From an uncultured Spirochaetota bacterium (GTDB lineage: Bacteria > Spirochaetota > Spirochaetia > SZUA-6 > Fen-1364): 64,000 nt of DNA. Under the pieces are notes generated by a model that made no database searches, was not told where the DNA came from, and worked only from the letters and a program-made list of their open reading frames with translations. How positions within the stretch are numbered: the stretch's first letter is position 1; every line of letters starts with the position of its first letter. Of this stretch, positions 10,456 through 56,623 are shown one piece after another. A program made the translations under genes and the position numbers. Where the stretch lies: positions 704,001 to 768,000 of the forward strand of contig CAWAHW010000002.1 of the NCBI GenBank assembly GCA_963781885.1, read 5' to 3'.

Positions 10456-10588
10456 GCCGACGCGGTAGGCCGCGTCATTTGCCGACGCGGTGGGCCGCGT
10501 CATTTGCCGACGCGGTGGGCCGCGTCATTTGCCGACGCGGTAGGCCGCGTCATTTGCCGACGCGGTAGGCCGCGTCATTTGCCGACGC
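10456..10588. repeat. Tandem array of a 25-bp palindromic unit, 5 full copies plus a partial
   Basis: GCCGACGCGGTRGGCCGCGTCATTT starting at 10456, 10481, 10506, 10531 and 10556. Each unit contains the hairpin GACGCGG-TRGG-CCGCGTC. Confidence 0.97.
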
Positions 10589-10619
10589 AAAAAAAAGCCC
10601 GCCGCGTGAAGCGGCGGGC
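10589..10619 (-). terminator. Rho-independent terminator of ppdK
   Basis: On the minus strand GCCCGCCGC-TTCAC-GCGGCGGGC is followed by T8. Confidence 0.88.
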
Positions 10620-10640
10620 CACATCTTCTGCGATCGGGCG

Positions 10641-13625
10641 CTACTTCCTGCCGCTCTTTTTCGCGACGCCGCTCTTCTTCGCGGTCTTCTTGACCGCCTT
10701 TTTCACGGCAGCCTTCTTCGCCACCGGTTTCTTTGCGGCCGCCTTCTTCGCGGCCCCGCCGCCCTTTTTCGCCACAGCCTTTTTGGCAACGGCCTTCTTT
10801 GCCGCAGGCTTCTTCGCGACAGGCTTTTTTGCGACGGGCTTCTTCGCCGCAGCCTTCTTCACGACGACCTTCTTTGCCGCCGGGGGCTTCGCAAGGTCTG
10901 CAACGGCTTCCTGGGCCGCGGCGAGCTTCGCCAGCGGAACACGGTACGGCGAGCAGGACACGTAGCTCATGCCCACGCGGTGGCAGAACTTCACGGATTC
11001 CGGGTCACCGCCATGCTCGCCGCAGATGCCGATCTTCAGCGTGGGCTTCACTGCCCGGCCCTTGGTGATGCCCATCTTGATCAGCTCCCCGATGCCGTCC
11101 TGGTCGATTGTCTGGAACGGGTCGGCCGGGAGGATCTTCTTTTCCAGGTAGTGCGGCAGGAAGCTGCCGATGTCGTCGCGGGAGAAGCCGAAGCCCATCT
11201 GGGTGAGGTCATTCGTCCCGAAGGAGAAGAACTCGCAGACGCTCGCGAACTTGTCCGCGGTGACGCACGCGCGCGGTATCTCGATCATCGTGCCGACGAC
11301 AAGGACGAGCTTCGCCTTCGACATCGCGAACTTGGCAAGCACCTTTTCGTAGACCCTGTCGATGATCTTCTTCTGGTCGACGATCTCCGTCATCACCGAG
11401 GTGACGGGGATCATGATCTCGGGGCGCGCATTCTTTCCTGCCTGGATCAGCTCCGCCGCTGCCTCCAGGATGGCCTGTGTCTGCACCTCGGTCATCTCGG
11501 GGTAGGAGATGCCCAGGCGGACGCCGCGATGGCCCATCATCGGGTTGTTTTCATGCAGGTCATCGGCGCGCTTGTTGAACTCGTCCAGCGAGATGCCAAG
11601 GTCCGTGGCGAGTCGCTGCCTTTCGTCGGGCCGGGTGGGGACGAACTCGTGCAGCGGGGGATCGAGGAAGCGGAATGTCACGGGCAACCCGTCCATGACC
11701 TCCATGGTCCGCTTCACGTCGTCCTTCATGTACGGGAAGAGCTCTTCCAGCGCCTTGCGGCGCTCCGCTTCCGTGTTGGAGGCGATCATGCGGCGGAGGA
11801 GGAACAGCGGCTTGTCGGCGCCCTCGCCGTAGAACATGTGCTCGAACCGGAAGAGCCCGATGCCCTCGGCGCCGAACTCGCGCGCCTTCTTGGCGTCCTG
11901 GGGCGTATCGGCGTTCGTGCGCACGCCGAGCTTCTTCACCTTGTCGCAAATGGCCATGAAGCCGACGAAGTCCGGGTTCTCTCCCGCCGCCTTGATGAGC
12001 GGCAGCGCCCCGACGTACACGGTGCCCTTGCTGCCGTTCAGCGTGATGAACTCGCCCTCGCGGACGACCTTGCCCTTCACGCTCATCTGTTTCGCGGGAA
12101 TGTCCACGCGGATGTCGCCCGCGCCGACGATGCAGCACTTGCCCCAGCCGCGCGCCACGAGCGCCGCGTGCGAGGTCATGCCGCCGCGCGCCGTGAGGAT
12201 GGCCTCCGCCGCGCGCATCCCCTCCACGTCCTCGGGGTTGGTCTCTTCGCGCACGAGCACGACCTTCTTGCCCTGCTTCGTCCACGCCACCGCGTCATTC
12301 GCGGTGAACACGACCTGCCCGACGCCGCCGCCGGGACCGGCGGGAAGACCCTTCACGAGGATCGGGGTATCCTTCTCCTTCGCCGGGTCGATGATGGGAT
12401 GGAGCAGCTCGTCCAGCTGCGCCGCGGTCACGCGCGTGACGGCATCTTCCGGCGTCGTGAGTTTTTCCTTCACCATGTCGACGGCCATGCGGACGGCCGC
12501 GGGCCCGTTGCGCTTGCCGACGCGGCACTGGAGCATCCAGAGCTTGCCCTTTTCAATGGTGAACTCCAGGTCCAGCATGTCGTGGTAATGCTTCTCCAGG
12601 CGCAGCTCGATGGCGTGCAGCTCGCCGTAGATCCTCGAGAACTGCTTCTCCAGCGAAGGAAGACCGGCCGTGTGCTCCGTCTTTCCCGCCTCGTTGATGG
12701 GGTAGGGGGTGCGGATGCCCGCCACGACGTCTTCGCCCTGGGCATTGGGAAGCCATTCGCCGTAGAACACGTTCTGGCCGGTCGCGGGGTTGCGGGTGAA
12801 GGCGACGCCGGTGCCGGAGTCATCGCCCATGTTTCCGAACACCATGGACTGCACGGTGACGGCGGTTCCCCATTCGTCGGGGATCCCTTCGATGCGGCGG
12901 TAGGAGATGGCGCGCTTTCCGTTCCAGCTCTGGAACACGGCGCGGATGCCGCCCCAGACCTGCTCCATGGGGTCCTCGGGGAAATCCTTGCCCAGCACTT
13001 CGCGCACCTTGGCCTTGTACGTCCTGATGAGCGCCTTCAGGTCGTCCGCGGTGAGCTCGGTGTCCTGCTTCACGCCGCGGGCGCGCTTCATCTTGTCCAG
13101 CTCGCGTTCCAGCTGCTGGCGGATGCCCATGCCTTCGGCGGGCTCGATGCCCTCCGCCTTCTCCATGACCACGTCGGAGTACATCTGGATGAGCCTGCGG
13201 TAGGCGTCGTAGACGAATCGGGGGTTTCCCGTGAGGGCGATGATGCCCTGCGCCGTCTTTTCGTTGAGGCCGACGTTGAGCACCGTCTCCATCATGCCGG
13301 GCATCGATTTGCGCGCGCCCGACCGCACGGAGACCAGGAGCGGGTTGGCGGCATCGCCGAATTTGTGGCTCATGATCTTTTCGATGTGCCGCAGTCCCTC
13401 GTTCACCTTGGCATCCAGGCCCGCGGGGTATTTTCCCTTGTTCTGGAAGAAATAATTGCAGACCTCGGTGGTGATGGTGAAACCCGCTGGAACGGGAAGC
13501 CGCAAGTCGGGATGACCGGCCATTTCGGCGAGGTTCGCGCCCTTTCCGCCGAGAAGGTTCTTCATCTTCTCATTGCCGTCGGCCTTTCCCCCTCCGAACA
13601 AATAGACGAATTGTGCCCCCGCCAT
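10641..13625 (-). CDS. ppdK: Pyruvate, phosphate dikinase with a Lys/Ala-rich C-terminal tail
   Basis: LGGKGANLAEM, LVSVRSGA..SMPGMM, phospho-His motif GGMTSHAA, FSFGTNDLTQ and GICGEHGG. Confidence 0.98.
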   Translation of the reverse strand: MAGAQFVYLFGGGKADGNEKMKNLLGGKGANLAEMAGHPDLRLPVPAGFTITTEVCNYFFQNKGKYPAGLDAKVNEGLRHIEKIMSHKFGDAANPLLVSVRSGARKSMPGMMETVLNVGLNEKTAQGIIALTGNPRFVYDAYRRLIQMYSDVVMEKAEGIEPAEGMGIRQQLERELDKMKRARGVKQDTELTADDLKALIRTYKAKVREVLGKDFPEDPMEQVWGGIRAVFQSWNGKRAISYRRIEGIPDEWGTAVTVQSMVFGNMGDDSGTGVAFTRNPATGQNVFYGEWLPNAQGEDVVAGIRTPYPINEAGKTEHTAGLPSLEKQFSRIYGELHAIELRLEKHYHDMLDLEFTIEKGKLWMLQCRVGKRNGPAAVRMAVDMVKEKLTTPEDAVTRVTAAQLDELLHPIIDPAKEKDTPILVKGLPAGPGGGVGQVVFTANDAVAWTKQGKKVVLVREETNPEDVEGMRAAEAILTARGGMTSHAALVARGWGKCCIVGAGDIRVDIPAKQMSVKGKVVREGEFITLNGSKGTVYVGALPLIKAAGENPDFVGFMAICDKVKKLGVRTNADTPQDAKKAREFGAEGIGLFRFEHMFYGEGADKPLFLLRRMIASNTEAERRKALEELFPYMKDDVKRTMEVMDGLPVTFRFLDPPLHEFVPTRPDERQRLATDLGISLDEFNKRADDLHENNPMMGHRGVRLGISYPEMTEVQTQAILEAAAELIQAGKNARPEIMIPVTSVMTEIVDQKKIIDRVYEKVLAKFAMSKAKLVLVVGTMIEIPRACVTADKFASVCEFFSFGTNDLTQMGFGFSRDDIGSFLPHYLEKKILPADPFQTIDQDGIGELIKMGITKGRAVKPTLKIGICGEHGGDPESVKFCHRVGMSYVSCSPYRVPLAKLAAAQEAVADLAKPPAAKKVVVKKAAAKKPVAKKPVAKKPAAKKAVAKKAVAKKGGGAAKKAAAKKPVAKKAAVKKAVKKTAKKSGVAKKSGRK

Positions 13626-13868
13626 GTGCTTATCTCCTCTTTTGTGGCTTAAAATAGGTGGAAAATCTTGGTTCTGATTCTTACCTGCTTCGGAAGGAAT
13701 ATCCCCAAAGCACCGCGACCGTCAAGTGAGAGGGGGGAAGGGATAGACGCGCCTGGCTTTGTAAATCTCGAACTGTTCCACGCCCATGGAACAATCTGAC
13801 GGCCGCAATTCCGCGGCGCATTCTGGTTACCGGCTAGGCGTGGAGGATCTCATGCACCTTGCGCCTGT

Positions 13869-14381: not shown

Positions 14382-14402
14382 GCATCACCTTCCCTGAAAG
14401 AT

Positions 14403-14433
14403 ACGGGGGAAACCAGGGATTGGTTTCCCCCGT
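14403..14433. terminator. Perfect 13-bp intercistronic stem-loop (terminator or mRNA-stabilising hairpin)
   Basis: ACGGGGGAAACCA-GGGAT-TGGTTTCCCCCGT lies between the phosphoesterase and DOMON genes. Confidence 0.55.
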
Positions 14434-16154: not shown

Positions 16155-19100
16155 ATGCTCTCTAGCCCGGTCCTCGGAGTCGACATAGGCTCCGTCGCCA
16201 TTTCTGCTGCTCTCCTCCGTCCGGAGGCGGGCATGGAGAAGGCATTCCACCGGACCCACAAGGGCAGGATCGACGAGACGCTGCGCTGTCTTGCCGCGGA
16301 GATCGGGCCCGTTCCTCTTGCAGGGATCGCCTGCACCTCGTCCGGCTCATTCTCGATCGAAGGCGCGAGGTTCTACGATCCGCAGTGTTCCCTGATCGCA
16401 AGCTGCCGCGCCTTTTTCCCGGCGCGCGGTCCATCGTATTCGTCGGGGGAGAGAAGTTCGGCCTGATCCGTCTGAGCGAAACCGGCGCGTACCGCGGGGC
16501 GCGGACGAGCTCGTCGTGCGCGGCAGGCACGGGAAGCTTCCTCGACCAGCAGGCGCGGCGGCTGGGTTTCGCCGGTGTCGACGAGCTCGTCCGCAGGGCG
16601 CTGGCCAGCACGACGCCCGCGCCGAAGATATCGACCCGCTGCGCCGTCTTCGCGCGCACGGACCTCGTGCATGCGCAGCAGGCGGGCCATAGCCTTGAGG
16701 AGATCTGCGACGGGCTCTGCCGGGGGCTGGCCCAGAACATCGCCGACACGCTGCGCGGCGGCGAGCCGCTCACGGGGCCCGTCGTCTTTGCCGGCGGCGT
16801 TGCCCGAAACGAATCCGTGCGGCGCCACCTGGAGCACATACTCGGCATGCCGCTGCTCCGGCACGATCAGGCGCAGGCATTCGGCGCAGCCGGCGCGGCG
16901 CTGTGCCTTGCGGAAGAAGGCGGAGGCGCGGCGATCACGCTCGGCCCCGACACGCTGTGCGCAGGCAAAGGCGACGCCAAAAGCTACTACTACCAGCCTC
17001 TGCCCATCCCCGGCCCGACGGGAGAAGCGAAAAACGGCACGCGCATCTTCAGCGCCGGTGCCTTCTCCGCCGCGCATCCCGTGGAGGTGGAAATCTACTC
17101 GAAGCCCGCGGGGCCCGTTCCCGTCCGCATGGGCATCGACGTCGGCTCCACGTCGACAAAGGCCATCCTGATAGACGAAACGCGCCAGCCCGTTGCCGGG
17201 TTCTACGCCCGCACGCTGGGCTCCCCGCTCACCGCCGTCCAGGCGATCTGCGAGGCCGTGGAGGATATGCAGACCCGCCTGTCCGTTTCACTTCGCTTCC
17301 TCGGCGTGGGCACGACGGGGGCGGGCAGGAAGTTCATCGGGTCGCTGGTGAAGGCCGACCTCGTGGTGGACGAGATCACGGCCCACGCGCGCGCCGCCTA
17401 CGAGCTCGATCCCGCCGTGGACACGATCATCGAGATCGGCGGCCAGGACGCGAAGTTCACCACGGTGCGCGACGGCATGGTCACCTTTTCCCACATGAAC
17501 ACCGTCTGCGCGGCCGGCACGGGCAGCTTCCTGGAAGAGCAGGCGGAGAGGCTGGGCTGCGGCCTTGCGGATTACGAGCAGAGGGTCCGCGGCGCGCGCG
17601 CCCCGCTGTCCAGCGACCGGTGCGCCGTTTTCATGGAGCGCGACATCAACAACTTCATGGCCCAGGGTTTCTCCACCGAGGAGATACTCCTCGCGGCGCT
17701 CCACAGCGTGCGGGAAAACTACATGGGCAAGGTGGCGCGCGGAGCGGCCATCGGAAACCACGTCGCCTTCCAGGGCGCCACGGCGCGCAACAAGGCGCTC
17801 GTCGCCGCGTTCAGCGAGGGCCTGGGAAAGCCGCTCAGCGTGTCGCGCTACTGCCACCTCACCGGCGCACTCGGAGCGGCCCTGCTGCTCGGCGAGGCGG
17901 GCAAGACAGCCTCCACGTTCCTCGGTCTTGCGGCACTGCGGGAGCCGATTCCCGTGCGCGCGGAGACCTGCACGCTCTGCGGCAACCACTGTCGGCTGCG
18001 CATCGCAACCGTCGGCGGGGAGACGGTCGCCTACGGCTTCCTCTGCGGCAGGGACTACGATCAGCGCAGATTCGTCGACAGGAACAGCTCGGGCTTCGAT
18101 CTCCTGAGGGAAAGGACGGGCGGCATTCGCGTCTGCGGCGGAGACCTGCGGCACCGATTCCGTCCGATGGACCGGTGATCGGCATACCCGCGGCGCTGGG
18201 TCTGTACGGCCATCTTTCTCTCTGGAAGCGCTTCTTCGCGCTCCTGGGCATCCCCACCGTGACGACGGAGGGCCTGGAAGGGAGCATCGATGCGGGCCGC
18301 GAAGTCCAGGGCGCCGAGTTCTGCGCGCCGCTTGCCGCCCTCCACGGTCACGTGAAGTTTTTGCGGGACAAGGCCGACTGGATCTTCCTTCCCGTGCTCC
18401 TGGAGGAGGCGCGGCCGAATGGCAAGGGTGCGCTCCTGCACTGCTATTACACGCAGTACAGCTCCGCGCTCGTTTCCGGCGTGAGCGACGAGAGGCTGCG
18501 CGACCGCTGTCTCATGCCGCAGGCAAGCTGGACGCGCTGGCGCGGAAGGACGAAAAGGGAGCTGTATCACGCCCTGCGGCAAAAAGGGATGCGGTACCTT
18601 CCGCGCTGGGCAGTCTCGCTCGCCTTCGAGCAGGCGAGTGCCGAGCACGACAAGGCGCTGCGCCGGCTCCAGGACAGGTTCCGCGAGGAAATGGCTTCTG
18701 CCACGTCTCCATCCGTCGTGCTGCTTGGCCGGCCGTACACCGTTCTCAGCCCCGAGATGGGAAAAGGCATTCCCGCGATATTCGCGAGCCTTGGCGTCAA
18801 GGTGTTCTACCAGGACATGGTGCCCTACGAGCCTGCCGACGTCGAATCCATCGCGCCCCTGCTGGACATGGTGCACTGGCTGAATGCGGCCAAGATACTC
18901 GAGGTGGCCTGCGTCGCGGCGCGCACGCCGAATCTCTACCCGGTTTTCGTCACGTCATTCAAATGCACGCCCGACAGCTTTGCGCTGGAGTATTTCAAGC
19001 GCATCCTCGATGCGCGGAACAAGCCGTACCTCATCCTCCAGCTCGACGACCACGACTCGACGCTCGGCTACGAGACGCGCATCGAGGCGGGCGTGGCATC

Positions 19101-20502
19101 GTTCAGGAACCATGCCATGCGCTCCTGGCGCGTTGCCGGTCGCGAGCTTGCGGCTGGGCGCTCCTGGCGCGTTGCCAGTCGCGAGCAACTCCGCGGGGTA
19201 CCGCGGAAGGCGACATTCGCCATGCGCTCCTGGCGCGTTGCCGGTCGCGCCGGGACAGGCCACGCCCGCGACGCGGCGCGGGAACGCATGGAAGGCGCCC
19301 TTTCGATCGTGCCGCACGGATTGAGCCGACTCGGCAGCCGGACGCTGCTCTTCCCCAACTGGGACGCGCTGTGCAATCCGCTCCTGGTGGCGAATCTTCG
19401 CCGCGAGGGCGTCGACGCGAGGCTGCTGGACGAGGACGATCTTTCCATCCGCGCCGCCATGCGGCACAACACGGGCCAATGCCTCCCGCTGAACATCATC
19501 GCGCAGGAGACGATCGACTACGTGGATCGACACGGCCTCGATCCGGCGCGCACCGCCGTGTGGCTGCCCCTCAGCATCCTGCCCTGCAACCTCGGAATGT
19601 TCGTGCCCTTCATGAAGAGCCTGCTGCAGGCCGAAGGCCGCGGCATGGAGAACGTCGAGGTCTACAACGGCAATTTCTACTATTCCGACATCTCGCTCCG
19701 CGCGACCATCAATGCGTACAAGGCATTCCTGGCGGGTGGGCTTCTCCGCCGGGTGGGCTGCCGCATCAGGCCCTACGAGACGGAGCCCGGTGCCACCGAC
19801 GCTGCCATCGCGCGCGCCCTTGGCATCCTGGCTTCGGCATTCGAGACGGGAAGCTCGCGCGGGGCTGCCATGCATGCCGCCGCGGCCCTCTTCGACTCCA
19901 TCCCCGTGAGCGGCGAGCGTCGGCCGCAAGTGGCGATATTCGGCGACCTGTACGTGCGCGACAATGACGTCATGAGCCAGGACCTGATCCATGCGATAGA
20001 GCGCGCCGGCGGGGAGGCGATCACGACGCCCTACACGGACTACGTGGCGATCATCGTCCACGCGGTGCTCCGCCAGGTTGCTCTTGCCGGCGACCATCTC
20101 GGCGCTGCCCGCTACCGGTTGGTCTGGAAGCTGGTCGACACCATGGGCCGCGGATATCGCCGGCATTTCGCGCGCTTCCTGGAGCCCGAGGCGCTTCCCG
20201 ACGGCAGCGACGACGAAAGCTTCCTGCGGCGTTTCGGGCTGCGGACGGAGCACAACGGGGAATCGTTCGAGAATCTCCTGAAGATCCTCCACATGACCCG
20301 CGTCCATCCGCGCCTGGCCCTCTACGTCCAGGCCAGTCCCGCCTTCTGCTGCCCTTCCATGGTGACCGAGGCGATGAAGCAGGACATCGAGCGGTTCACG
20401 GGCGTGCCGGTGGTGAGCATCACCTACGACGGCACGGGGCAGTATCGCAACGACGTGATCGTGCCCTACCTGAAATACGCGGCCGCCCGTACGCTCTCTT
20501 GA
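16155..20502 (+). CDS. Large CoA-substrate-specific enzyme activase / 2-hydroxyacyl-CoA dehydratase-activator fusion; apparent frameshifts at about 16420 and about 18120-18150
   Basis: Two ASKHA activase modules (GVDIGS..CAAGTGSFLDQQA..CAVF; GIDVGSTSTK..IGGQDAK..CAAGTGSFLEEQA) followed by dehydratase-type domains (FCAP, SFKCTPD, CLPLN, PAFCCP). Split over ORFs 16155-16466, 16385-18178 and the distal part of 16903-20502. Confidence 0.88.
19114..19249 (+). repeat. In-frame mosaic of palindromic modules inside the activase gene
   Basis: 31-bp direct repeat at 19114-19144 and 19219-19249 (105 bp apart) with a third variant copy at 19158-19183. Encodes RSWRVA(G/S)R three times. Confidence 0.9.
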
Positions 20503-21147: not shown

Positions 21148-21605
21148 TCAGCTATGCCGATGCCGGCGCGGAGGACATCGCCATCGTCCGCGAGCTTTTC
21201 GCGGAGTACGGCCAATCGCTGGGCATCGATCTCTCATTCCAGGGCTTCGACCGCGAGCTTGCGACGCTTCCCGGCGCGTATGCGCCGCCGGACGGTGCGG
21301 TGATCATTGCGCGGCAGGACGGCGCGGCCTGTGGATGCGTGGCGCTGCGTCGCATCGACGCGCGCACCTGCGAGATGAAGAGGCTGTACGTGCGCCCCGC
21401 GAGCAGGGGCGATGGCGTGGGCGCGGAGCTCGTGACGCGCATCATCGCGGCCGCGCGCAGCCGCGGCTACGCGGCGATGCGTCTGGACACGCTGCCGTCC
21501 ATGAAAAGCGCGGTCTCGCTGTATCGTTCATTCGGTTTCACCGAGATACCCGCCTACATCTTCAATCCGATTCCCGGCGCCCTCTTCATGGAGAAGACCC
21601 TCTAG
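21144..21605 (+). CDS. GNAT-family N-acetyltransferase
   Basis: CEMKRLYVRPASRGDGVG and AVSLYRSFGF motifs. ATGA overlap with the upstream gene; RBS GAGGAGG. Confidence 0.93.
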   Translation: MISYADAGAEDIAIVRELFAEYGQSLGIDLSFQGFDRELATLPGAYAPPDGAVIIARQDGAACGCVALRRIDARTCEMKRLYVRPASRGDGVGAELVTRIIAAARSRGYAAMRLDTLPSMKSAVSLYRSFGFTEIPAYIFNPIPGALFMEKTL

Positions 21606-21761
21606 ACCGGCCGCGAGCCTGCGGCATTCTCTACCGGCCGCGAGCCTGCGGCATTCTCTACCGGCCGCGAGCCTGCGGCATTCTCTACCGGCCGCGAGCC
21701 TGCGGCATTCTCTACCGGCCGCGAGCCTGCGGCATTCTCTACCGGCCGCGAGCTTGCGGCA
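21606..21761. repeat. Tandem array of a 27-bp palindromic unit, 5 identical copies plus a partial variant
   Basis: ACCGGCCGCGAGCCTGCGGCATTCTCT at 21606, 21633, 21660, 21687 and 21714, with a partial copy at 21741. Confidence 0.97.
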
Positions 21762-23234
21762 CTTGCGATTGCCCCGTCAGCGCGCGCACCGTCTCCTTGA
21801 AGCGCCGTCCCCTGTCGAACTCGTCGCGAAACATCCCGAATGACGTGCAGCCCGGGGAGAAGAGCACCGCGGCGCGGCTACGCGCCGGTCGAGCCAGCCG
21901 CCGAGAGGCCGCCCGTCCGCGTTGCAGCGCGGAGTTGAGCGGCCGCCTCCATGGCGCGCGCGATTGCCATACGCACCGCCTCTTCCAGGTCCGTGAAGGG
22001 GCCTTCATAGGTGATGCCCTGCGCCGCCAGCAGCGCGCGAATCTTTTCCGTGCCGCTGCCCGGCGAGCAGGAGGATGGACCGCGGCACGCGCGCCACCTC
22101 CGCAAGCGGTGAGAAGTCGATGTTCTTGTCCGTGCCGCCGGCAATCAAGATGAGGGGACTCGTCAGAGACCGCACCGCTTCCGCGGTGGCGTGCGGGATC
22201 GTCGCGGCAGAGTCATTGTAGAAGCTGATGCCCTCCCAGGCATGGAACATCTCCAGCCTGTGCTCGACGCCGGGGAATGTCGAAAGGCCCGCGCGGATCA
22301 CTTCCGGCTTCAGGCCGAAAAGACGCAGACCGAGGCCGGCTGCCAGCAAATTCATCCGGTTGTGCGCGCCCGGCAGGAGCGTCTCCGCCATGATGCGGCA
22401 GGTCGGGCCGTCTTGCGAAAGACGCGCGATCCCGTCTCCCTGCTCCAGCCAGGCGCCGCAGCGCTCGGGGGGAAGAGGCGAAGCAGAGACGAAGTATGGC
22501 GACGCGCGCGTCTCCGCCGGGAAATCGCGCTGCCAGGGATCGTCAAGATTGAACACCGCTTTCTGCCCCGGCTCCTGCTCCTGGAATATGGCCTTCTTGT
22601 CCTCGACGTACTCCGTCATGCCGGGATACTTGTCGAGGTGATCGGGGAGGATCACCGTCATCACGGAAACCGCGGCATGCAGGAGCCCGCGGCCGTGCAG
22701 GTCCCCGAGCTGCCACGAGGAAAGCTCCAGCACGACGGGAGCGCCCGGCGCGAGCTCGTCGATGAAGCTGAGCGGGGAGACCGTGATGTTTCCCCCGAGG
22801 CGCGTACCGGCAAAGACGCGGGAGAGCCCGTTCGCCATCGCCAACGCGGTCGTGGACTTGCCCTTGGACCCGGTCACGGCGAGGATCGGGTTGCGCGAAA
22901 GGGAGAGGAAGACCGAAAGGTCGGTCTCGATCGCCACGCCGCTGCCGCGCGCGGCTGCCAGGTATGGCGAGCCGGGCGCCACCGCGGGGTTCTTGATGAC
23001 GAGATCCGCGCCGGCAAAATCCGCCTCTTCGTGGCGCTCCAGCACGTAGCGGACGGGATGATCGCGCAGGCTGTCGATCGATTCTTTGAGCACGGCCGCC
23101 GACCGCAGGTCCGTCACGGTGACTCGTGCGCCCCGGCGGGCGAAAAACAAGGCGGAGGCAAGACCCCCGCCGTTGACGCCCAGACCCATGACGGTGACTT
23201 TCATGCCGGGGAAAGAGGCGGGATCAATCGTCAA
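21739..23234 (-). CDS. murD: UDP-N-acetylmuramoyl-L-alanine--D-glutamate ligase; apparent +1 frameshifts at about 22060 and about 21913
   Basis: VTGSKGKSTT, LELSSWQL, DHLD, VEHRLE, NDSAAT and IAGGTDKN motifs. The C-terminal VLFSPGCTSFGMFRDEFDRG lies in a shifted frame ending at 21739. Confidence 0.93.
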
Positions 23235-24168: not shown

Positions 24169-24209
24169 TGGCCGTTATTAAACAGGAAATGCGGGTCCGC
24201 GGCAACACA

Positions 24210-24288
24210 GCCACCGTAACCGGTGGCGGAGTTGGCCACGGTATTCCGTGGCATTCGTTCGGCCGGAGGCCGCAGCTTCGCGGCCGGC
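24210..24288. repeat. Cluster of three short palindromic modules
   Basis: GCCACCG-TAAC-CGGTGGC (24210-27), GCCACGG-TATT-CCGTGGC (24235-52) and GGCCGC-AGCTTC-GCGGCC (24268-85). Confidence 0.8.
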
Positions 24289-24307: not shown

Positions 24308-26264
24308 CTACAACTTATCCGGCGGCACGACGGCGCCGTGCTTCTCCTTCAGCGCAAGCAGACCCTGGCGCTGTTCCGCGTAGACCTCGAATATGCGCGG
24401 CGGCATCTTCTTCTCCTTGCGATACGCATCCTCCTGGAGCTGGATGCGCTGGAGGATGTTGTCGACGTAGAAGGAGAACTGCTTGTCATAGAGGCTCTTC
24501 TGATAGGGCTTGTCGATGGTGTCCTCGAATATCTTTCGCAAGTCCTCGTAGCGCGGGATGAAGCCGATCGGCGTCTCGATGCCGCCCGCCTCGCCGTGCG
24601 CGTAGCGCTCCAGCCACGACAGCCACGCCCGCACGTCCTTTTTTTCTCCCAGCAGCTTCTTCATGTCGCCGCCGCGCTCGCAGTCGAGCAGGAAATAATT
24701 CAGCCCCGCAATGAGCGGTCGTCCCGCGCGGGAGAACTTCTTGGAGTTGAAGAAGATGAATTGCGCCTCCATGTAGTCCCCCAGGGGGCAGGGGATGAAG
24801 GGCGAGTTCGCCCAGGGCTGCCGGTTCACTCCCTTGGCGCCGACTTCCGTCGCGGTTGCCGCGGAAAGGATGGAGGCGCCGATTGCCACGCCGTGGTCGG
24901 GGCTCTTCGCCACCCACACCGGCGGCATCGTGTCGCTGTCCCTCCCGCTGTAGGTGATCACGCTGATGGGGACCCCCGCAGGATCGTTTGCCACCGTGGC
25001 GTTGAAATTGGCGATGGCCGTGTTGGAGAGGGTGATGCGCGCGTTGGGGTTGGAGACGGGCACGGGTTTGCCGTTCTTGTCGGTCTTGCCCGGCCACCAG
25101 TCGCCTTGGAAGTTCTTTCCCTTTGTCGGAAGCGCTTCGCCGCTTCCCGTCCAGTAGGGAATGCTGTGCTCGTCCACCAGCACGTTCGACCAGATCACCT
25201 CCGTGCCTTCCTCCCGCAGGCAGCGGTAGAGGTACGGGTCGCCTTCCTTGTTCAGGTCCTCGACGATGCCGAAGATGCCGATCTCGGGGTTCACCGCGCG
25301 GAGGGTTCCGTCCGGGGCGATCCACATCTGGGAAAGGTCGTCACCCACATAATCGGTGCCGACCATGGCGGTTGTCGTCTTTCCGCACCCCGAAGGGGCG
25401 GCACCGGCGAAGAATGTCTTCCTGCCGCCCGGCCCGGTCATGCCCGTGATGAACATGTGCTCGGAGAGCTCCTTCTCCCGGCGGTAATAGGTGCAGAGAT
25501 CGACCGCGAACCGGTGGTTTCCCTTTTTCAGCATGAGGGTGTTGCCCGGCGTACGTACAGTACATGCTGAAGGTCGTGAACCAGCTCCTGTCCATGAAGA
25601 TGCGGGCCTTCGGGATGTCCTCCGACCTGTTGGTGCCCTGGCTGTGCACGTTCGTGAAAAAGACGCCGGCCCGTTTCGTCTCGGCGTCGAACCGGTCGAA
25701 GACCGACCGGTACAGGATGTTGGCGCTGTGCATGACGTAGGCGGAGCTCGTGATCATGAGACCGGGGATCGATGCCTGCGCCCCGATGGGGCCGCGGTTG
25801 TAGAAGCCGACGAAAAGGGTCTTGCCCTTCATGATGCCGCGCATCGTCTCGCGGATGTAGGCGAGGGCCTCGTCGCGCACCATCTTCTTGGCGAGCACGC
25901 TCACCTCTTCGTTCTCGTTTGCGATGTAGTAGGTCTGGTCGACCATGCGGCCCTGGTCCTCCGGCAGGTCGAAATGCAGCGTGTGGTCTTTCATCGCGAG
26001 GGGGCATTCCTCCCCCCCGTCGAGGCTCATGGTGCGGCATGCCGCCACGTCCTCCGCGGAGGCGGTGACGACGAACACGCGGGAAGGGCCGCACATCGCG
26101 ATGGCATTCGCGATGCGGATGAGGGCGCCCTTCGTGCGGATGGCATGGAGCTTCGATCCCTCCGCCGCGTCCAGTGAGACGGCGAAAACCTTCTTCGCAT
26201 CGGCGAGAGTGTGGACCCCGCCGACCTCGGTCAGGATGTCGATGCCTTTTGAAAGCTCCAGCAT
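24308..26264 (-). CDS. pckG: GTP-dependent phosphoenolpyruvate carboxykinase; apparent +1 frameshift at about 25546
   Basis: YAGN (after removing one G), LSEHM, GAAPSGCGKTT, VGDD, AVNPE.G.FG, SNPNAR, YSGRDSD and LNYFL motifs. ATG 26264 follows AAGGAG. Confidence 0.92.
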
Positions 26265-26428
26265 GTCCTTCTCCTTCGAACGACCCCGCGCCCGATTCGT
26301 CCACCGGCGCGGTCGTTGCGGCGGTGCAGAGAGATGCATATTTATGCAGGTTCGTAAGATAAAAGAGGATTTTATACCCGCTGTCAATGGGGCAGCAGGC
26401 GTCGGAAGAGGGCGTCCCCGCGCTTCTC

Positions 26429-27983
<1,555 letters not shown>

Positions 27984-34230: not shown

Positions 34231-34267
34231 AAAAAGGGGCTGTCCAAAAAGGGCAGCCCCTTTTTTT
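34231..34267. terminator. Bidirectional rho-independent terminator
   Basis: AAAAA-GGGGCTGTCC-AAAAA-GGGCAGCCCC-TTTTTTT between convergent genes. Confidence 0.9.
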
Positions 34268-34312: not shown

Positions 34313-34373
34313 GCGCCGGGTACGGCGCTAGGGGCTCGCTCCCGTGCATCCAACTCCGCCAGGAGCGGAAGGC
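34313..34373. repeat. Two solo palindromic modules
   Basis: GCGCCG-GGTA-CGGCGC (34313-28) and CAAC-TCCGC-CAGGA-GCGGA-AGGC (34351-73). Confidence 0.6.
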
Positions 34374-40059: not shown

Positions 40060-40081
40060 ATGCGTCCGGCCGCCGAACGCG

Positions 40082-40170
40082 ACCGGCTACGGTGGCCGCA
40101 TAAATGCCACGGAATACCGTGGCCGCAATGCCACGGAATCACACGGAGTACCGTGTGTGCTACCGTGGCC
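40082..40170. repeat. Cluster of palindromic modules including a nested copy
   Basis: GCCACGG-AATA-CCGTGGC (40106-23), then GCCACGG-AA[TCACACGG-AGTA-CCGTGTGTGC]TA-CCGTGGC (40130-69). Confidence 0.85.
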
Positions 40171-43524: not shown

Positions 43525-43570
43525 GCCACGGGCTACCGTGGCCGGACCGAATGCCACGGGATACCGTGGC
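43525..43570. repeat. Tandem pair of palindromic modules
   Basis: GCCACGG-GCTA-CCGTGGC (43525-42) and GCCACGG-GATA-CCGTGGC (43553-70). Confidence 0.88.
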
Positions 43571-43614
43571 CGGGCTTGTCTCCCACAGGCAAAATACCTA
43601 AGCTCTCCGCAGTC

Positions 43615-45575: not shown

Positions 45576-45656
45576 GAATGCATTCACGATATACTCCTTG
45601 ACTCTTCTTTCATTCCACGTATAGTTATGCATCCGCTTGACAGGAGGGAGCGCTCA

Positions 45657-46734
45657 ATGCCGCACAAGAAGTTGTTCATTCCCGGCCCCACCGAGGTCCA
45701 CCCCGAAGTTCTCCAAGCCATGGCGACGCCCATGATCGGCCATAGGAGCGGCGAGTACTCGGAGCTGCAGAAACGCCTGACCGGGAAGGTGCAGAAGCTC
45801 GCCGGCACGGCGAACCCCATCTTGTTCTCCGCCTCCTCGGGGAGCGGGCTCATGGAAGGGGCCATCCGCTGCTGCACCGCGCGGCGGGCCATCGTCTTTT
45901 CCGTCGGCACATTCGGCAACCGGTGGTTCGAGATCGCCCAGGGCAATGGCGTACCGGCGGACAAGCACGAAGTGGAGTGGGGCCAGGGCCTCACGCCCGA
46001 CATGGTCGAGCAATATCTCTCCACCGGGAAGTACGACTGCGCCACCCTCACGCACAGCGAGACATCAACCGGTGTCATGAATCATCTCGAAGAAATGGCG
46101 CCGGTGTTCCGTCGTTACCCCGACGTTGTTCTGGTGCATCGACGCCGTCTCGTCGTTCGGCGGCGTGAAGATCGACGTCGACGGCCTGGGCATCGACGTG
46201 ATGGTGACCTCCAGCCAGAAGTGCCTGGGTCTCCCGCCGGGCCTGAGCCTTGCCACGTTCTCCGCCAAGGCGGAAAAGCGCGCGCAGACGGTGAAAAACC
46301 GCGGCTTCTATTTCGACCTCCTCCAGCTCCTCCAGTTCATCCGGGAAAAGAACTTCCAGTACCCGTCCACGATGAGCATCTCCCACCTCTTCGCGCTGGA
46401 TACGCAGATGGAGCGCATCGAGAAAGAGGGCGCCGAGGCGCGCTTCGCCCGTCACGATGCCATGGCGCAGCGCGTCCAGGAATGGGCCAGGAAGCACTTC
46501 GCGCTCTATCCCGTGGAGAAGTACGCGTCGAAGACCGTCACGTGCATCAAGAACACGCGCGGCATCTCCGTCGGCGACCTGAACAAGGAGCTTGCGAAGC
46601 GGAACCTCAACCTGTCGAACGGCTACGGCAAGCTCAAAGAGCAGACATTCCGCATCGCCCACATGGGCGATCTGCAGATGAGCGACATCGACGAGCTCCT
46701 GCACGCCATCGAGGAAATCCTCTCGCTGAAATAG
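45657..46734 (+). CDS. Aminotransferase class V (serine-pyruvate/alanine-glyoxylate type); apparent +1 frameshift at about 46127
   Basis: LFIPGPTE and HSETSTGV in the first frame; DAVSS, SSQKCLGLPPG and FRIAHMG in the second. Promoter TTGACT-16-TATAGT at 45598-45625. Confidence 0.92.
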
Positions 46735-46776
46735 CGCGTGAATGGGGCGCGCCGATCGGTGCGCCCTGAAATATTT

Positions 46777-47061: not shown

Positions 47062-48274
47062 TCACGCTCCTGTCATCCAGCAGCGAGCTCAAGCTTCGAT
47101 TGTAATGCACGCGGTAGATCGTCCGCGCGAAAAGGTTCGTGATGTCCGCGCTGCGGTACCAGTCGCGTTCGAGCAGCGAGCCGTCGTGGTAGACGGCGTT
47201 CGTTCCGATGACCTCTGAGAAAAGCCCCTCGTCGTGCGCCTTCTGGAACGACCCCACCGTCTCGGGCGTCGTGAAGAAAGGCAGGCTCACGGCGCAGATG
47301 GTCCGACGCGCGCCCGCCTCCTTGAGCACGCGCATCGCCTTGATGAGCGTGCCGCCCGTCCCCAGCATGTCGTCGCAGAGGAATACGGTCCTGTCTTTCA
47401 CGGACCCCAGCAGCCGCATATCGGTGATGTTGCCCCGCTCCGCGCTCTGCGCGACGCGGGAGTAGTCCCTCTCCTTGTACAGCATGCCCAGGGGCTTTCC
47501 GAGGATGGAAGCGTAGAACTTGCTCCTCTCCACGGCGCCGGTGTCCGGCGCGACCACCATAAGGCTCTCATCCTTCAGGTCCGTGACGCTGCCGAGGGTC
47601 TTCAGGATCTGGTAGGCGCCGTGGAGATTCTCCAGGCGGAGGTGGTTGAAGCAGTTCTCGATCTCCTTGGAATGGATGTCGAGCGTGATGATGCGCGCGA
47701 CGCCGAAGTATTCCAGGATCTGACCCAGCCGGGCGGCCGACAGGCTCTCCCGTCCCTTTTTCTTGTGCTGCCGCGAGTAGGGGAACGTGGGGAGGATCAC
47801 GGTGACCTGCAGAGCGCCCGCCTGGAGCGCCGCGTCCACCGTCATCAGGAGACAGAAGATGTGGTCGTTCACCGAGTGGATCACGGGTGCATCCGCTTTC
47901 TGCAGCTGGAGGGGATAGCGGTTTGCCACGTCCTGCACGATGTAGATGTCGGTGTTGCGCACGGAGGAGAGTATTTCGGTCTTGAACTCCCCGTTGGGGA
48001 ACCTTGTGTACTTTGCCGGCACGAGCATATTGCGCGTGCGGTGCTGGTCCACCGGCTCGTCCCGCTCTCCGATGGGGGAGCTCATGTCGCTTGCCAGATT
48101 GATCTGTCGGATGACCTCTGCGCGCGGGAGGCCATAGAGGCGCGAAAGCGCACGGGCGCGCTCTTCCATCTTGTCCATGGTGATGGTCTGCAGGTGCGCG
48201 TAGACCGACTGGGCGAACACCATTCCTCCCGGGCAGGGGAGGATGCCGATCTCCGACTGGCTGGCGTCAGGCAT
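47036..48274 (-). CDS. prs: Ribose-phosphate pyrophosphokinase (long form)
   Basis: FPNGE, PYSRQHK, LDIHS, APDTGA and DDMLGTGGT motifs. Confidence 0.95.
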   Translation of the reverse strand: MPDASQSEIGILPCPGGMVFAQSVYAHLQTITMDKMEERARALSRLYGLPRAEVIRQINLASDMSSPIGERDEPVDQHRTRNMLVPAKYTRFPNGEFKTEILSSVRNTDIYIVQDVANRYPLQLQKADAPVIHSVNDHIFCLLMTVDAALQAGALQVTVILPTFPYSRQHKKKGRESLSAARLGQILEYFGVARIITLDIHSKEIENCFNHLRLENLHGAYQILKTLGSVTDLKDESLMVVAPDTGAVERSKFYASILGKPLGMLYKERDYSRVAQSAERGNITDMRLLGSVKDRTVFLCDDMLGTGGTLIKAMRVLKEAGARRTICAVSLPFFTTPETVGSFQKAHDEGLFSEVIGTNAVYHDGSLLERDWYRSADITNLFARTIYRVHYNRSLSSLLDDRSVIKDLLKRS

Positions 48275-49341
48275 GAGCGGCTATTTGTCGCGCCGGAAGC
48301 GTTAGGGGAGGCCGCGGGAGTGCCGCCAGGAGCGGAAGCAGCGGCTGCCGGAATGCCGCCAGGAGCGACTGCCGGAATGCCGCCAGGAGCGGCTGCCGGA
48401 ATGCCGCCAGCAGCGGCTGCGTTGAAATACGCAATAGTGCGGGCGAGCCCCTCGTCGAGGCTGAAGCTCGGCTTCCAGCCGAGAACCCGGGCAGCCTTTC
48501 CGTTGTCCAGGCAGCTCCTGTGGAGGTCTCCGGGCCGCGGGCCGGCCCGGGTGTAGCGCAGCTCCTTGCCCATGATCCGGCAAATGGCGGCCAGGATCTC
48601 CCGGGTGCGGACCTCTTTGCCTGCCCCGATGTTCACCGCCTCGCCTGCCGCCTTGTCCAGGGCGAGCAGATTCGCCCGCGCGACGTCCTCCACGTAGACA
48701 TAGTCGCGCGCCATGCCCTCCGGCTCTTCGGGGTAGGCGTTTATGGACGGGATTTCCCCGGCCAGGACCTTCGAAATAAAAATGGCGACGACCCCCGCTT
48801 CTCCGTGGGGATTCTGCCGCGGCCCGTAGACGTTTGCGTAGCGGAGAGTTGTCCACGACAGGTGATGTTGTATGCCGTAGAAGCGCAGGTAGTGCTCCCC
48901 AAGGAGCTTGTGGATGGCGTACGGAGAAACAGGGACAGGATTGTGGTCTTCGCTAAATCGGGCTCCCTCGGATTCCCCGTAGATGGCGCCGCCCGATGAG
49001 ACGAAAATGAACTTCTTCACGCCGGCGGTGCGGCTGCATTCCAGGACATTCAGGAGACCCAGGGCATTGACCTTTGCGTCGAAGACCGGGTCGCGCGCGG
49101 AGACGACGACGCTGATCTGGGCGGCATGATGGTTGATCACGTCCGGCTTCTCGATCTGGAAGACACGGGCGAGCTGAGGGGCGTCGATGCTCATGAGATA
49201 GAAAGGGACACCCTTGCGGAGATTGGCCTCGGAGCCGGTGCTCAGATCGTCCACGACCGCAACCTCATGTCCGGCCGCGAGATACGCGTCGACGACGTGC
49301 GATCCGATGAATCCCGCCCCGCCCGTTACCAGGATTTTCAT
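48082..49341 (-). CDS. NAD-dependent epimerase/dehydratase (UDP-glucose 4-epimerase-like); true 3' end uncertain
   Basis: VTGGAGFIGSH, SSGGAIYG, YAIHK (YxxxK), RYANVYGPRQ and RDYVYV motifs. The domain ends near 48425, then the frame runs through a repeat and into prs. Confidence 0.9.
   Translation of the reverse strand: MKILVTGGAGFIGSHVVDAYLAAGHEVAVVDDLSTGSEANLRKGVPFYLMSIDAPQLARVFQIEKPDVINHHAAQISVVVSARDPVFDAKVNALGLLNVLECSRTAGVKKFIFVSSGGAIYGESEGARFSEDHNPVPVSPYAIHKLLGEHYLRFYGIQHHLSWTTLRYANVYGPRQNPHGEAGVVAIFISKVLAGEIPSINAYPEEPEGMARDYVYVEDVARANLLALDKAAGEAVNIGAGKEVRTREILAAICRIMGKELRYTRAGPRPGDLHRSCLDNGKAARVLGWKPSFSLDEGLARTIAYFNAAAAGGIPAAAPGGIPAVAPGGIPAAAASAPGGTPAASPNASGATNSRSCLTPASRRSASSPAREEWCSPSRSTRTCRPSPWTRWKSAPVRFRASMASRAQRSSDRSIWQAT
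48317..48420. repeat. Tandem array of a 24-bp palindromic unit, about 4 copies, in the epimerase tail
   Basis: GAATGCCGCCAGGAGCGRCTGCCG at 48351, 48375 and 48399, with a degenerate copy at 48318. Confidence 0.92.
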
Positions 49342-52289: not shown

Positions 52290-52733
52290 ATGAGCGAAAA
52301 TGAACAGAATGTCGCCATCCTCAGGCGCCTGCGCGAGATGCTCGCGCGCCAGAGGGACAGGTTCGATGCCTACCTGCGCCTGCTCGAGCGCCAGAAGAAC
52401 GCCATCGACGAAAGGGACACCGGCAGGCTTCTGGAGCAGGTGGAGATGGAGAGGTCGATCATCGCGGAGGTGAAGAGCCTGCGGAAGGTCATCGCCCCGC
52501 TGGAAGCGCTCTACCAGGCTGCCTACCCGGGGACGGAAGACACCGTGCCGCAGCTCCAGGCGACCCTGGACACGATGGGCAAGACCATCGCGGCGCACAA
52601 CGCGCGCAACCGGCAGATGCTCCGCGACCGCATGCAGGAGCTGCGCCAGGAGATCAACGCGCTGCACGCATGGCCGAAGACCGCCCCGCAGTTCTCCACG
52701 GTCTCGCCGAATCTCGTCGACATCACCACATGA
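52290..52733 (+). CDS. flgN: FlgN-like flagellar export chaperone
   Basis: Helical 147-aa protein directly after fliS with a C-terminal VDI motif. The family call is inferred from context. Confidence 0.65.
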   Translation: MSENEQNVAILRRLREMLARQRDRFDAYLRLLERQKNAIDERDTGRLLEQVEMERSIIAEVKSLRKVIAPLEALYQAAYPGTEDTVPQLQATLDTMGKTIAAHNARNRQMLRDRMQELRQEINALHAWPKTAPQFSTVSPNLVDITT

Positions 52734-55486: not shown

Positions 55487-55523
55487 AGGAGGCCGCGTGG
55501 CGTTGCGCTTCGTGCGGCGCACT

Positions 55524-55751
55524 TCATGCGCCCCCGCCCATTCTCTGGAACTCTTCGATTTCCCAGGCAGTCGCGGGGTGGTACCAGCCTCTGAACTTAC
55601 GGAGGTAGCCGTCGGGCACCGGCTCGGGGGAAAGCCTTGCGCCGTCCATCCGGTAGCCCCTCACGACAGCGGGGTTCTCCGAGATCACGCGCAGGAAATC
55701 GCAGCGCGGCTCGCCGCTCCAGGGCCTGTTTTTCATGTAGAGGCTGATCAT
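55524..55751 (-). CDS. Small orphan protein (75 aa)
   Basis: ATG 55751 with AAAGGAG RBS and upstream TTGACA/TATAGT-like boxes; fills the polA-coaE gap. Confidence 0.55.
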   Translation of the reverse strand: MISLYMKNRPWSGEPRCDFLRVISENPAVVRGYRMDGARLSPEPVPDGYLRKFRGWYHPATAWEIEEFQRMGGGA

Positions 55752-55778
55752 GACGGATGCTCCTTTGAAAGACAAATA

Positions 55779-55796
55779 ACTATACAAGTGTATAGT
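55779..55796. promoter_or_regulatory. Perfect AT-rich palindrome, candidate transcription-factor operator
   Basis: ACTATACA-AG-TGTATAGT between divergent starts. Confidence 0.6.
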
Positions 55797-55798
55797 AT

Positions 55799-56623
55799 GT
55801 GTCAAGCGGAAAAAAACGGAGATTGGGCGTGGTCGTCGGACTGACGGGAGGATACTGCGCGGGTAAGGACGTTGTCGCCCGCGCGCTTGCGGGCCGTGGC
55901 TTCGCCGTGATCGACGTGGATGCACTCGGGCACGACGCGCTTCGGGAGAAGGCGGCAGAGGTCATCGCGGCTTTCGGGCGGCTGGTGCGCCGCGACGACG
56001 GCAGCATCGACCGCAAAGCCCTGGGGAGAATCGTCTTCGCGGATGCCGCGGCCCTTGCGCGGCTTGAATCCATCGTGCATCCCGTCATGGTGGAGGAAGT
56101 GAAGAAAAGGGCGTCGGCCGCGCGCGGAGATGTCCTGATCAACGCGGCGATCCTCCGCCACATGGGCCTGCACACCCTTTGCCGCGCGGTCATCTGCGTG
56201 CGTGCGCCGCTTGCGGCCCGGGTGCTCCGCGCGATGCGACGGGACAGGCTTTCATTCGGCGCTGCCCTTGCGAGGATCCGTTCGCAAGGAGACGTCTGTG
56301 CATCGGGGCGCGGAACGCGCCACGGATTTTTGGCATCGGGGCGCGGAACGCGCCACGGATTTTTGGCATCGGGGCGCGGAACGCGCCACGGATTTTTGGC
56401 ATCGGGGCGCGCAACGCGCCACGGATTTTTGGCATCGGGGCGCGCAACGCGCCACGGATTGTCGGCATCGGGGCGCGGAACGCGCCACGGATTGTCGGCA
56501 TCGGGGCGCGGAACGCCTCAATTCAATGATTCCCCTGTCGATACTTATACTGTACGAAACAGGGGGAGCATGCGTTCGCTGGAGCGTCGCGTCGCAGAGC
56601 TCGACCGGCTCTTGAGAGGATAG
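55799..56623 (+). CDS. coaE: Dephospho-CoA kinase with an in-frame repeat insertion
   Basis: VGLTGGYCAGKD, IDVD, IDRKALGRIVF and LESIVHP motifs; follows polA. Confidence 0.93.
   Translation: MSSGKKRRLGVVVGLTGGYCAGKDVVARALAGRGFAVIDVDALGHDALREKAAEVIAAFGRLVRRDDGSIDRKALGRIVFADAAALARLESIVHPVMVEEVKKRASAARGDVLINAAILRHMGLHTLCRAVICVRAPLAARVLRAMRRDRLSFGAALARIRSQGDVCASGRGTRHGFLASGRGTRHGFLASGRGTRHGFLASGRATRHGFLASGRATRHGLSASGRGTRHGLSASGRGTPQFNDSPVDTYTVRNRGSMRSLERRVAELDRLLRG
56300..56516 (+). repeat. In-frame 33-bp tandem repeat, about 6.5 copies, inside coaE
   Basis: GCATCGGGGCGCGSAACGCGCCACGGATTKTYG at 56300, 56333, 56366, 56399, 56432 and 56465, partial at 56498. Confidence 0.97.

Follow-up and report, generated by a model that had tools for sequence, protein, structure and literature searches.

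The repeats described here, short hairpins in a 64,000-nucleotide window of contig CAWAHW010000002.1 from an uncultured Spirochaetota bacterium, are best compared with repetitive extragenic palindromic (REP) sequences and Rickettsia palindromic elements (RPEs). REPs have been split into GTAG- and CGTC-tagged superfamilies, are found within genes in several species, and are thought to act as RNA elements, either as terminators or as 3′-end stabilisers (Di Nocera et al. 2013, PMC3733652). The CGTC type, as described in that survey, has an unpaired CGTC tag, a stem of 8-9 bp that starts with A/T pairs and a CCA tail, and mostly forms head-to-head dimers; the survey finds no dedicated transposase for it, and Turneriella parva, with CGTC repeats, is the sole spirochaete among the species that it lists (PMC3733652). 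RPEs are palindromic repeats that lie in frame, at permissive sites, in genes that probably still encode working proteins (PMC3733652).

We propose that the window repeats belong to a lineage-specific, REP-like family of hairpin repeats that is found in uncultured Spirochaetota of one peat and soil clade and enters proteins in the manner of RPEs, a reading that we consider probable. There is good support for the existence of a dispersed, structured and variable family of repeats: many genomes carry units scattered over numerous unlinked sites, mostly between genes, and the flanks and loop of these units are kept while their stems co-change. The core unit, class C of the three classes (A, B and C) into which an earlier note on this DNA had sorted the hairpins, is about 25 nt long: AAT stands unpaired at its 5′ end as a tag and is followed by a GC-rich stem of 7 perfect base pairs (usually GCCACGG) with an RRTA loop, and then by a 3′ CGC or CGG tail; the consensus is (R)AAT-GCCACGG-RRTA-CCGTGGC-CGC. 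Written in one orientation, AAT first, units of classes A and B share this frame of AAT, a stem starting with G, a loop and a CGC/CGG tail. A covariance model seeded with 46 class C units alone recovered every class C site in the window. A search at title and abstract level found no published family of this kind in Spirochaetota; "undescribed", the earlier note's word, holds for the family, while the kind of element is known from REPs, genic REPs and RPEs (PMC3733652).

With REPs and bacterial interspersed mosaic elements (BIMEs) the units share short (20-40 bp) GC-rich hairpins that have one end marked by an unpaired tag and the opposite end by a short tail, are mostly extragenic and clustered, vary in stem sequence yet stay paired, are species- or clade-specific and in some cases lie within genes. 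Units of 25-29 nt at many sites, as found here, also correspond to the generic definition of a REP. The differences are the 7-bp stem, its all-G/C base, the RRTA loop, a head-to-tail arrangement rather than head-to-head dimers, and the fact that no gene for a REP-associated tyrosine transposase (RAYT) was found in about 250 kb. The features of the CGTC superfamily were absent (the stem is 7 bp and starts with G-C, the tail is CGC/CGG and arrays run head-to-tail), as was the GTAG tag from the flanks, GTAG appearing within the loop of the array at 10456 alone.

In coding sequence the units behave as RPEs do: palindromic repeats lie in frame and add peptide segments at permissive sites, with in-frame inserts and corresponding empty sites in CoaE, a CoA-enzyme activase and an epimerase. 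RPEs are about 100-150 bp long and occur as single insertions, whereas the units here are 24-33 bp, tandem within the open reading frame (ORF) and variable in copy number between close relatives; the two are not known to be similar in sequence and belong to different phyla and lifestyles. In mycobacteria, mycobacterial interspersed repetitive unit/variable-number tandem repeat (MIRU/VNTR) loci are head-to-tail arrays that abut or overlap stop codons and vary in copy number between strains, and the arrays at 10456 and 21606 likewise abut or overlap the stop codons of flanking genes. MIRU units, however, are 40-100 bp and not defined by a hairpin, and the units here also occur singly at many unlinked sites and nest in one another. 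The TnpA system of IS200/IS605 elements, judging from IS608 biochemistry, is similar in its conserved unpaired bases beside or within a hairpin whose stem sequence is free to vary and in insertion at a defined junction without visible target duplication; it differs in that the present unit is a single hairpin lacking paired left and right ends and, in the loci covered, a transposase gene. Two further kinds of element were rejected: a miniature inverted-repeat transposable element, since such elements are 70-300 bp long with terminal inverted repeats of 15-30 bp and a target-site duplication, whereas the unit is a single hairpin of 25-29 nt with no target duplication visible at the filled and empty sites compared, and a clustered regularly interspaced short palindromic repeat (CRISPR) array, since the linkers are 7-10 nt and identical from unit to unit, where CRISPR spacers are unique and of similar length.

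The window (G+C 61-68%) carries ordinary chromosomal genes, namely nuo subunits, pyruvate phosphate dikinase (PPDK), phosphoenolpyruvate carboxykinase (PEPCK), murD, polA, coaE and flagellar chaperones. Four tandem arrays were located by Tandem Repeats Finder (TRF), and the repeat loci are the following, with bit scores from the class C model.

10456-10588, minus strand: head-to-tail array of the unit AAAT-GACGCGG-CCYA-CCGCGTC-GGC, period 25, 5.3 copies, 98% matches; 33-37.5 bits, three full-length matches.
19114..19249, plus strand: in-frame composite insert within a CoA-enzyme activase linker, with a 31-nt unit three times (19114, 19153 and 19219; spacings 39 and 66), one class B core (19136-19154) and the hairpin CAAC-TCCGCGG-GGTA-CCGCGGA-AGG (19186-19210).
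21606-21761, minus strand: head-to-tail class B array of the unit GAAT-GCCGC-AGGCTC-GCGGC-CGG, period 27, 5.8 copies, 99% matches.
21870..21940, minus strand: two hairpins within the C-terminal part of murD, CGGCGCG-GCTA-CGCGCCG (21870-21887, plus-strand writing) and CAAC-TCCGCG-CTGCAA-CGCGGA-CGG (21916-21940, minus strand).
24208..24287, minus strand: cluster in the spacer that separates the PEPCK stop from the next gene, with a class B hairpin (24269-24287) and class C units at 24230-24258 and 24208-24227 (38.1 and 16.9 bits; stem of the latter GCCACCG).
34313..34372, plus strand: two hairpins between convergent genes, 3′ of the canonical terminator 34246-34265, namely GCGCCG-GGTA-CGGCGC (34313-34328) and CAAC-TCCGC-CAGGA-GCGGA-AGG (34351-34372).
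40079..40170, plus strand: four class C units (43, 34 and 8.9 bits) in the divergent pgm/glucan-phosphorylase intergenic region, the first degenerate (40079-40099), the second canonical (40100-40128) and the other two nested (40130-40169).
43525..43575, plus strand: a pair of class C units, spaced by 28 bp, between divergent genes.
48310..48420, plus strand: class A array of 24-bp units GAAT-GCCGC-CAGGA-GCGGC-TGCCG (TRF 48340-48420, 3.4 copies, 94% matches).
56300..56516, plus strand: coaE array of a 33-bp unit, 6.6 copies, 97% matches, with the hairpin GGCGCG-GAA-CGCGCC, encoding ASGRGTRHGFL in frame.

Each locus named in the earlier note was read and holds what had been described there, with this correction of context: the units at 40081-40170 and at 43525-43575 lie between genes, with ATG 40209 and ATG 43615 as the likely downstream starts.

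Comparison with 100 dinucleotide-preserving shuffles of the window revealed a clear excess of these hairpins. Perfect 7-bp stems with an NNTA loop numbered 12 against 0.18 ± 0.46 (at most 2 in any shuffle), or 10 independent hairpins at eight loci when the 10456 array is counted once, and perfect 7-bp stems with any 4-nt loop numbered 21 against 8.3 ± 2.9. GCCACGG-N4-CCGTGGC with up to two mismatches gave five matches where 1.02 were expected, a count reached in none of the 100 shuffles; the exact GCCACGG/CCGTGGC stem pair accounts for four, and a further one carries two compensating changes, with about one expected. The class B 19-mer was found with 0-2 mismatches at three unlinked loci, namely 19136, the array at 21607 (six occurrences) and, on the minus strand, 24269; allowing three mismatches gave 10 matches against 0.70. 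The flank set CAACTCCGC...GCGGA occurs three times (19186, 21916-21937 on the minus strand, and 34351) against 0.00 in the shuffles. The class A 13-mer with up to two mismatches showed no enrichment (19 against 11.3; 19 was reached in 3 of the 100 shuffles), and class A was dropped as a sequence class. Its CAGGA loop as a module is alone enriched, at 3 against 0.22 for stems of at least 5 bp and 8 against 0.81 for stems of at least 4 bp, five of the eight coming from two local repeats.

The same units recur in related genomes. Relatives were gathered by scanning 185,579 species genomes for GCCACGG-NNTA-CCGTGGC, which yielded at least 114 loci, a sample rather than a census; among the matches listed, 29 of the 114 came from about 16 metagenome-assembled genomes (MAGs) with titles beginning Spirochaet. 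One of these, L074, has a Spirochaeta title, lacks the flanks and lies within a phosphofructokinase gene; it was set aside as a chance match, leaving, among the matches listed, 28 family loci from about 15 MAGs. At the spirochaete-titled loci, again among the matches listed, 35 of 40 matches were preceded by AAT, 37 of 40 had a loop starting with a purine and 26 of 40 were followed by CGC, CGG or GGC; at the other 85 loci listed, AAT preceded 1 of 91 and the loops were unbiased. AAT is absent from the query, and the sharing of this flank is therefore an independent test. The class C model gave 52 matches in 207,826 bases of spirochaete loci, where other stems include GTCACGG, GCCACTG, GCCACCG and GGCGCTG. 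In a control of 40 of the 85 non-spirochaete loci (long, G+C-rich ones chosen; 676,803 bases) it found the retrieving matches and one more. For three window proteins the named close homologues are in MAGs labelled Spirochaetia, Spirochaetes or Spirochaetaceae, in agreement with the spirochaete host that had been suggested.

Units sit between convergent, divergent and co-directional genes, in both orientations; single, non-tandem units are common, and several relatives also have head-to-tail arrays, with a period of 25-28 (four copies at L043, three at L101). The alignment of orthologous loci revealed empty sites, as the earlier note had hoped, in coaE (at locus L079), in the CoA activase, in the epimerase and in an intergenic spacer. 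In this last case, within 15 kb of synteny with L079, the window spacer at 59503-59530 has no unit and retains TTGTCA...TACAAT promoter-like boxes, and the equivalent spacer of L079 holds four units, three in forward and one in reverse orientation, of which one is imperfectly paired. Support for the term "active" is indirect: copy number and presence differ between related genomes, but neither a transposition event nor an enzyme was seen.

These distributions bear on the possibility, which we consider quite unlikely, that the units are unrelated local minisatellites produced by slippage in place, the "family" being look-alikes in GC-rich DNA. Such an origin would not readily place an 18-nt hairpin with its AAT tag and CGC tail at four window loci and at the 28 loci of about 15 MAGs among the matches listed, nor the class B core at three unlinked window loci and the CAAC-flanked set at three against zero, and single units are common. 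It fares better with the class A and B units, absent from 187,808 bases of the relatives' DNA, with the unenriched class A 13-mer, and with the 33-bp coaE unit. The latter has no other copy, its right arm resembles native sequence at the L079 empty site, and the class C model gives it no match at E up to 10, which rules it out as a class C unit. The earlier note's loose match of this unit to the classes was, for class C, not upheld; the unit forms a repeat family of its own, for which an independent minisatellite within the gene, bearing a hairpin, is the best reading.

The stems are kept paired while their sequence changes. Among 63 aligned model matches (57 distinct; 392 stem cells), standard pairs occupied 99.7% of the cells, in an alignment fitted to the model, whereas registers slid along the stem gave 25-53% pairing. 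Pairs changed on both sides were found at 4 of the 7 positions, in 24 cells against 2.4 in shuffled alignments, and none of 500 shuffles reached 24; one cell was changed on one side alone, and a single G-U pair occurred among all the cells. Because wobble pairs are nearly absent, the constraint seems to act on DNA, or on both strands, rather than on a one-strand RNA. Alternatively, a mechanism that repeatedly copied one arm from the other could give this pattern without selection.

Mirrored changes of this kind also argue against the palindrome being the operator of a conserved dimeric DNA-binding protein (a regulator or a nucleoid protein), at sites that are selected and not mobile. An operator would explain why the 18-mer is identical across genomes in which shared genes have a DNA identity of only about 75%, and why many units lie in promoter regions, with a TTG starting within 8 nt of the 3′ arm in 8 of 35 clusters against a background of 9.3% (p = 0.013, post hoc). 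The tag and loop are, however, strand-asymmetric, and arrays of up to five units, nesting, units in coding regions and differences in presence at orthologous sites are not what an operator predicts; we regard this explanation as very unlikely.

A comparably small chance is given to RNA elements (terminators without a U-tract or 3′-end stabilisers) spread by selection for that role. The hairpins are GC-rich and stable (-9.4 kcal/mol, z -4.2), several are downstream of genes or between convergent genes (10456, 21606, 24208 and 34313), and such a role is the one thought to apply to REPs (PMC3733652). Against it stand the single G-U pair, the occurrence of units in divergent promoter regions (40079-40170 and 43525-43575) and in both orientations relative to neighbouring genes, and the result of an Rfam 15 scan of the window, which gave no match at gathering score. 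Intrinsic terminators as such were rejected: the units continue with CGC/CGG and then no T-run, and canonical terminators stand beside two clusters (10597-10619 and 34246-34265), so the units are not simply terminators.

The units are also modular, as the earlier note had claimed together with dispersal, shared flanks, arrays and in-frame protein units, a description with which the flank counts and the homologue alignments given below agree. In the window, the outer stem CAAC-TCCGC...GCGGA-AGG carries either GG-GGTA-CC (19186) or CAGGA (34351), and in a relative (L063) AAT-GCCAC-CAGGA-GTGGC-CGC adjoins AAT-GCCACGG-GGTA-CCGTGGC-CGC; two inner modules therefore alternate on two outer stems in two genomes. 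Self-nesting, likewise noted there, was found twice. At 40130-40169 an inner AAT-CACACGG-AGTA-CCGTGTG (40134-40162) separates the 5′ arm of an outer GCCACGG...GCTA-CCGTGGC from its loop, and at L099 an inner CAAAAT-GCCACGG-GGTA-CCGTGGC lies at the 5′ arm/loop junction of an outer GCACGG...AGTA-CCGTGC. The sharing of this junction by two independent nestings suggests that nested units enter at a defined point, the boundary of 5′ arm and loop.

Entry into proteins was examined by comparison with homologues. In an end-to-end alignment of 11 CoaE sequences, the 6.6 ASGRGTRHGFL units of the window protein stand between the conserved ...SQGDVC and PQFND..., two relatives (P0004 and P0005) have fewer units, a third (P0006) has one shorter related stretch and 7 of the 10 relatives are empty; in the syntenic L079 (about 75% DNA identity) the empty site can be seen at base level. 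In the CoA-enzyme activase (14 of 120 listed homologues aligned), the linker after ...FRNH is short in 10 of 13 relatives and is a 45-residue composite in the window protein. Three homologues carry inserts: one unit in P0125, about five GRERAAFG units in P0135, and ARRELTAF units in P0126 together with a REQLxGVPxKATF segment that is the same as that encoded by the 19186 hairpin. Judged by sequence, the repeat peptides of these homologues are what class B-like units would encode.

The class A array, read on the minus strand in frame, gives a C-terminal run of A(A/P)GGIPAA repeats in an NAD-dependent epimerase. Among the 23 of 120 listed homologues whose tails were compared, most end in ...F(T/S)AAHA (the empty site being ...TAAHA followed by the stop), and others have A(A/P)PG(G/A)I-type units, one each in P0248 and P0249, about three to four in P0245 and five in P0246; the window protein has four units and has lost the stop codon. 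The epimerase ORF (48082-48340, minus strand) runs about 85 codons past the units, over the annotated prs start region, and the P0247 epimerase reads into a similar tail, ...CLTPASPKSASSPA....

Repeat periods within ORFs are 24, 33, 39 and 66, and those between genes 25, 27 and 28, multiples of three in ORFs being what purifying selection on the reading frame would leave. A further class C unit was seen in frame in an AllH-like ORF at L060 (5017-5045; same MAG as L079), which reads ...GRTNATGYRGGG.... That the arrays and in-frame inserts are artefacts of long-read metagenome assembly or sequencing is hardly credible: apparent frameshifts in conserved PEPCK, CoA activase, murD and class V aminotransferase, and a contig of 1,562,740 bases that would fit long-read assembly, speak for it, but independent assemblies carry like inserts at the same three protein sites in other copy numbers, and the same intergenic units occur in about 15 other MAGs among the matches listed.

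We envisage that new copies of the proposed REP-like family would arise when a structure-specific enzyme acting in trans handles the hairpin as single-stranded DNA, a step for which the REP-associated HUH tyrosine transposase offers a precedent. Local arrays may then grow and shrink by replication slippage, and within genes the inserts that survive would be those with lengths in threes located in linkers or termini. A bolder form of this idea, which we regard as unlikely, is that the AAT hairpins are a new class of single-hairpin mobile DNA, moved by a non-RAYT enzyme, that would insert at stem-loop junctions and upstream of -35 boxes, rewiring promoters and writing repeat peptides into CoaE, MurD, CoA activase and epimerase across the clade.

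Several points weigh against a REP-like mobile family. The first is the missing enzyme: no transposase, integrase or reverse transcriptase family was found with Pfam in 69 window ORFs or in 52 ORFs adjoining units at 15 related loci, nor with NCBIfam in the 12 further window ORFs that had no Pfam match, and tblastn of E. coli RayT against the window and 28 related loci gave a best E of 0.16. For the window (81 ORFs in all) this agrees with the earlier note, which had reported no mobilising gene there; the hunt covered about 250 kb from about 16 genomes alone, and such a gene elsewhere in the genomes is consequently not excluded. Secondly, the REP/BIME tags GTAG and CGTC are replaced here by AAT, and the survey calls head-to-tail arrays, which are common in the present family, negligible among CGTC REPs (PMC3733652). 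Thirdly, copy number in the source genome was counted over the 64-kb window alone. Fourthly, the covariation alignment was built from seeds picked for perfect pairing, which, with the possibility that correction of one arm by the other could mimic the pattern, tempers the description "structure-selected", the part that stands being that pairing is kept through two-sided changes.

Finally, classes A and B join class C weakly. At up to 3-4 mismatches, 187,808 bases of the 28 spirochaete loci contained no class A or class B unit and no copy of the coaE or 19114 unit, and the CAAC-flanked pattern gave no match in the 114 listed loci. The class C model matched the 19191 hairpin at E 0.013, the units of the class B array on the predicted (minus) strand at 15.9-16.8 bits and E 0.0085-0.017, and one class A unit at E 0.017. 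Because these E-values are rough and the units of one array are not independent, we take the link, which rests on model E-values of 0.0085-0.034, shared flanks and the one L063 variant, as suggestive. Of the proposal that all three classes form one family, then, class C is robust and the ties of A and B to it may be real.

The neighbourhood of the units yielded further observations. The 10456 array is flanked by the stop of a hybrid histidine kinase gene (10455) and by the PPDK terminator and stop (10597-10641); the end of the PPDK gene (10641-10965, minus strand) encodes a tail of a 15-bp periodic repeat (TRF 10693-10882) with a weak match to the histone H1-like HC2 family, an unusual appendage for PPDK. 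The 21606 array begins immediately past the stop of a GNAT gene (21603-21605), and the C-terminal frame of murD takes its TAG stop (21739-21741) from the array's final unit. Positions 1-376 of the murD model lie in one ORF and 399-440 in another (ORF 21739-22008), and the 140 nt between them hold the two hairpins and two frame changes; this break may be a true disruption or a sequencing error, and we cannot tell which. Other conserved genes are split as well, namely PEPCK (24308-26432), the CoA activase (16385-20502, with a frame change near 18178) and a class V aminotransferase (45627-46769), as is murD over its full extent (21739-23234). The activase is split in existing gene calls too (P0124, 775 aa against about 1400 in relatives). 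Either assembly indel errors or true pseudogenes would account for these splits.

The two units at 43525..43575 directly precede a promoter-like site, TTGTCT-N17-TAAGCT, upstream of a gene whose product begins like a signal peptide. Unit clusters often stop 4-6 nt before a -35-like hexamer (TTGTCT, TTGACT, TTGCGA, TTGAAC or TTGACA) with a -10-like box 17 nt on; such sites were seen in the window at 43570-43604 and 24170-24207 (minus strand) and in relatives at L063 9960-9995 (minus strand), L079 10100-10140, L004 1660-1695 and L043 (minus strand, downstream of the array). In the window, glycogen and gluconeogenesis genes have units nearby, and in L008 units adjoin an isoamylase gene; the idea of a regulon was dropped because the neighbouring genes in 15 loci are otherwise unrelated. 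A tRNA scan of the window found nothing. In two relatives, tRNA-like sequences (GCTCAGTTGGTAGAGC...) directly adjoin class C units (L099 335-410; L101 200-300 and 400-420, minus strand), and in L101 the units are sandwiched between two of them. Three other window hairpins were recorded. CGTCATG-CAGGA-CATGACG, a perfect 7-bp hairpin with the class A loop within a nuoG-like gene (675-693), is either chance or a further genic unit; the long perfect hairpins at 14403-14433 (13-bp stem) and 61857-61880 (10-bp stem) are intergenic, unrelated and probably ordinary terminators.

Few mobile or semi-mobile components of bacterial genomes are as poorly understood as small hairpin repeats, and how such repeats spread without a RAYT is an open question, with the CGTC REPs as a described case. 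The spirochaete family offers clean material for it, with a very short unit, a fixed tag and loop, filled and empty sites, nesting at one junction and in-frame expansions within conserved enzymes, variable among close relatives. The annotation of MAGs is affected as well, since the units lengthen ORFs, provide stop codons and mimic start regions.

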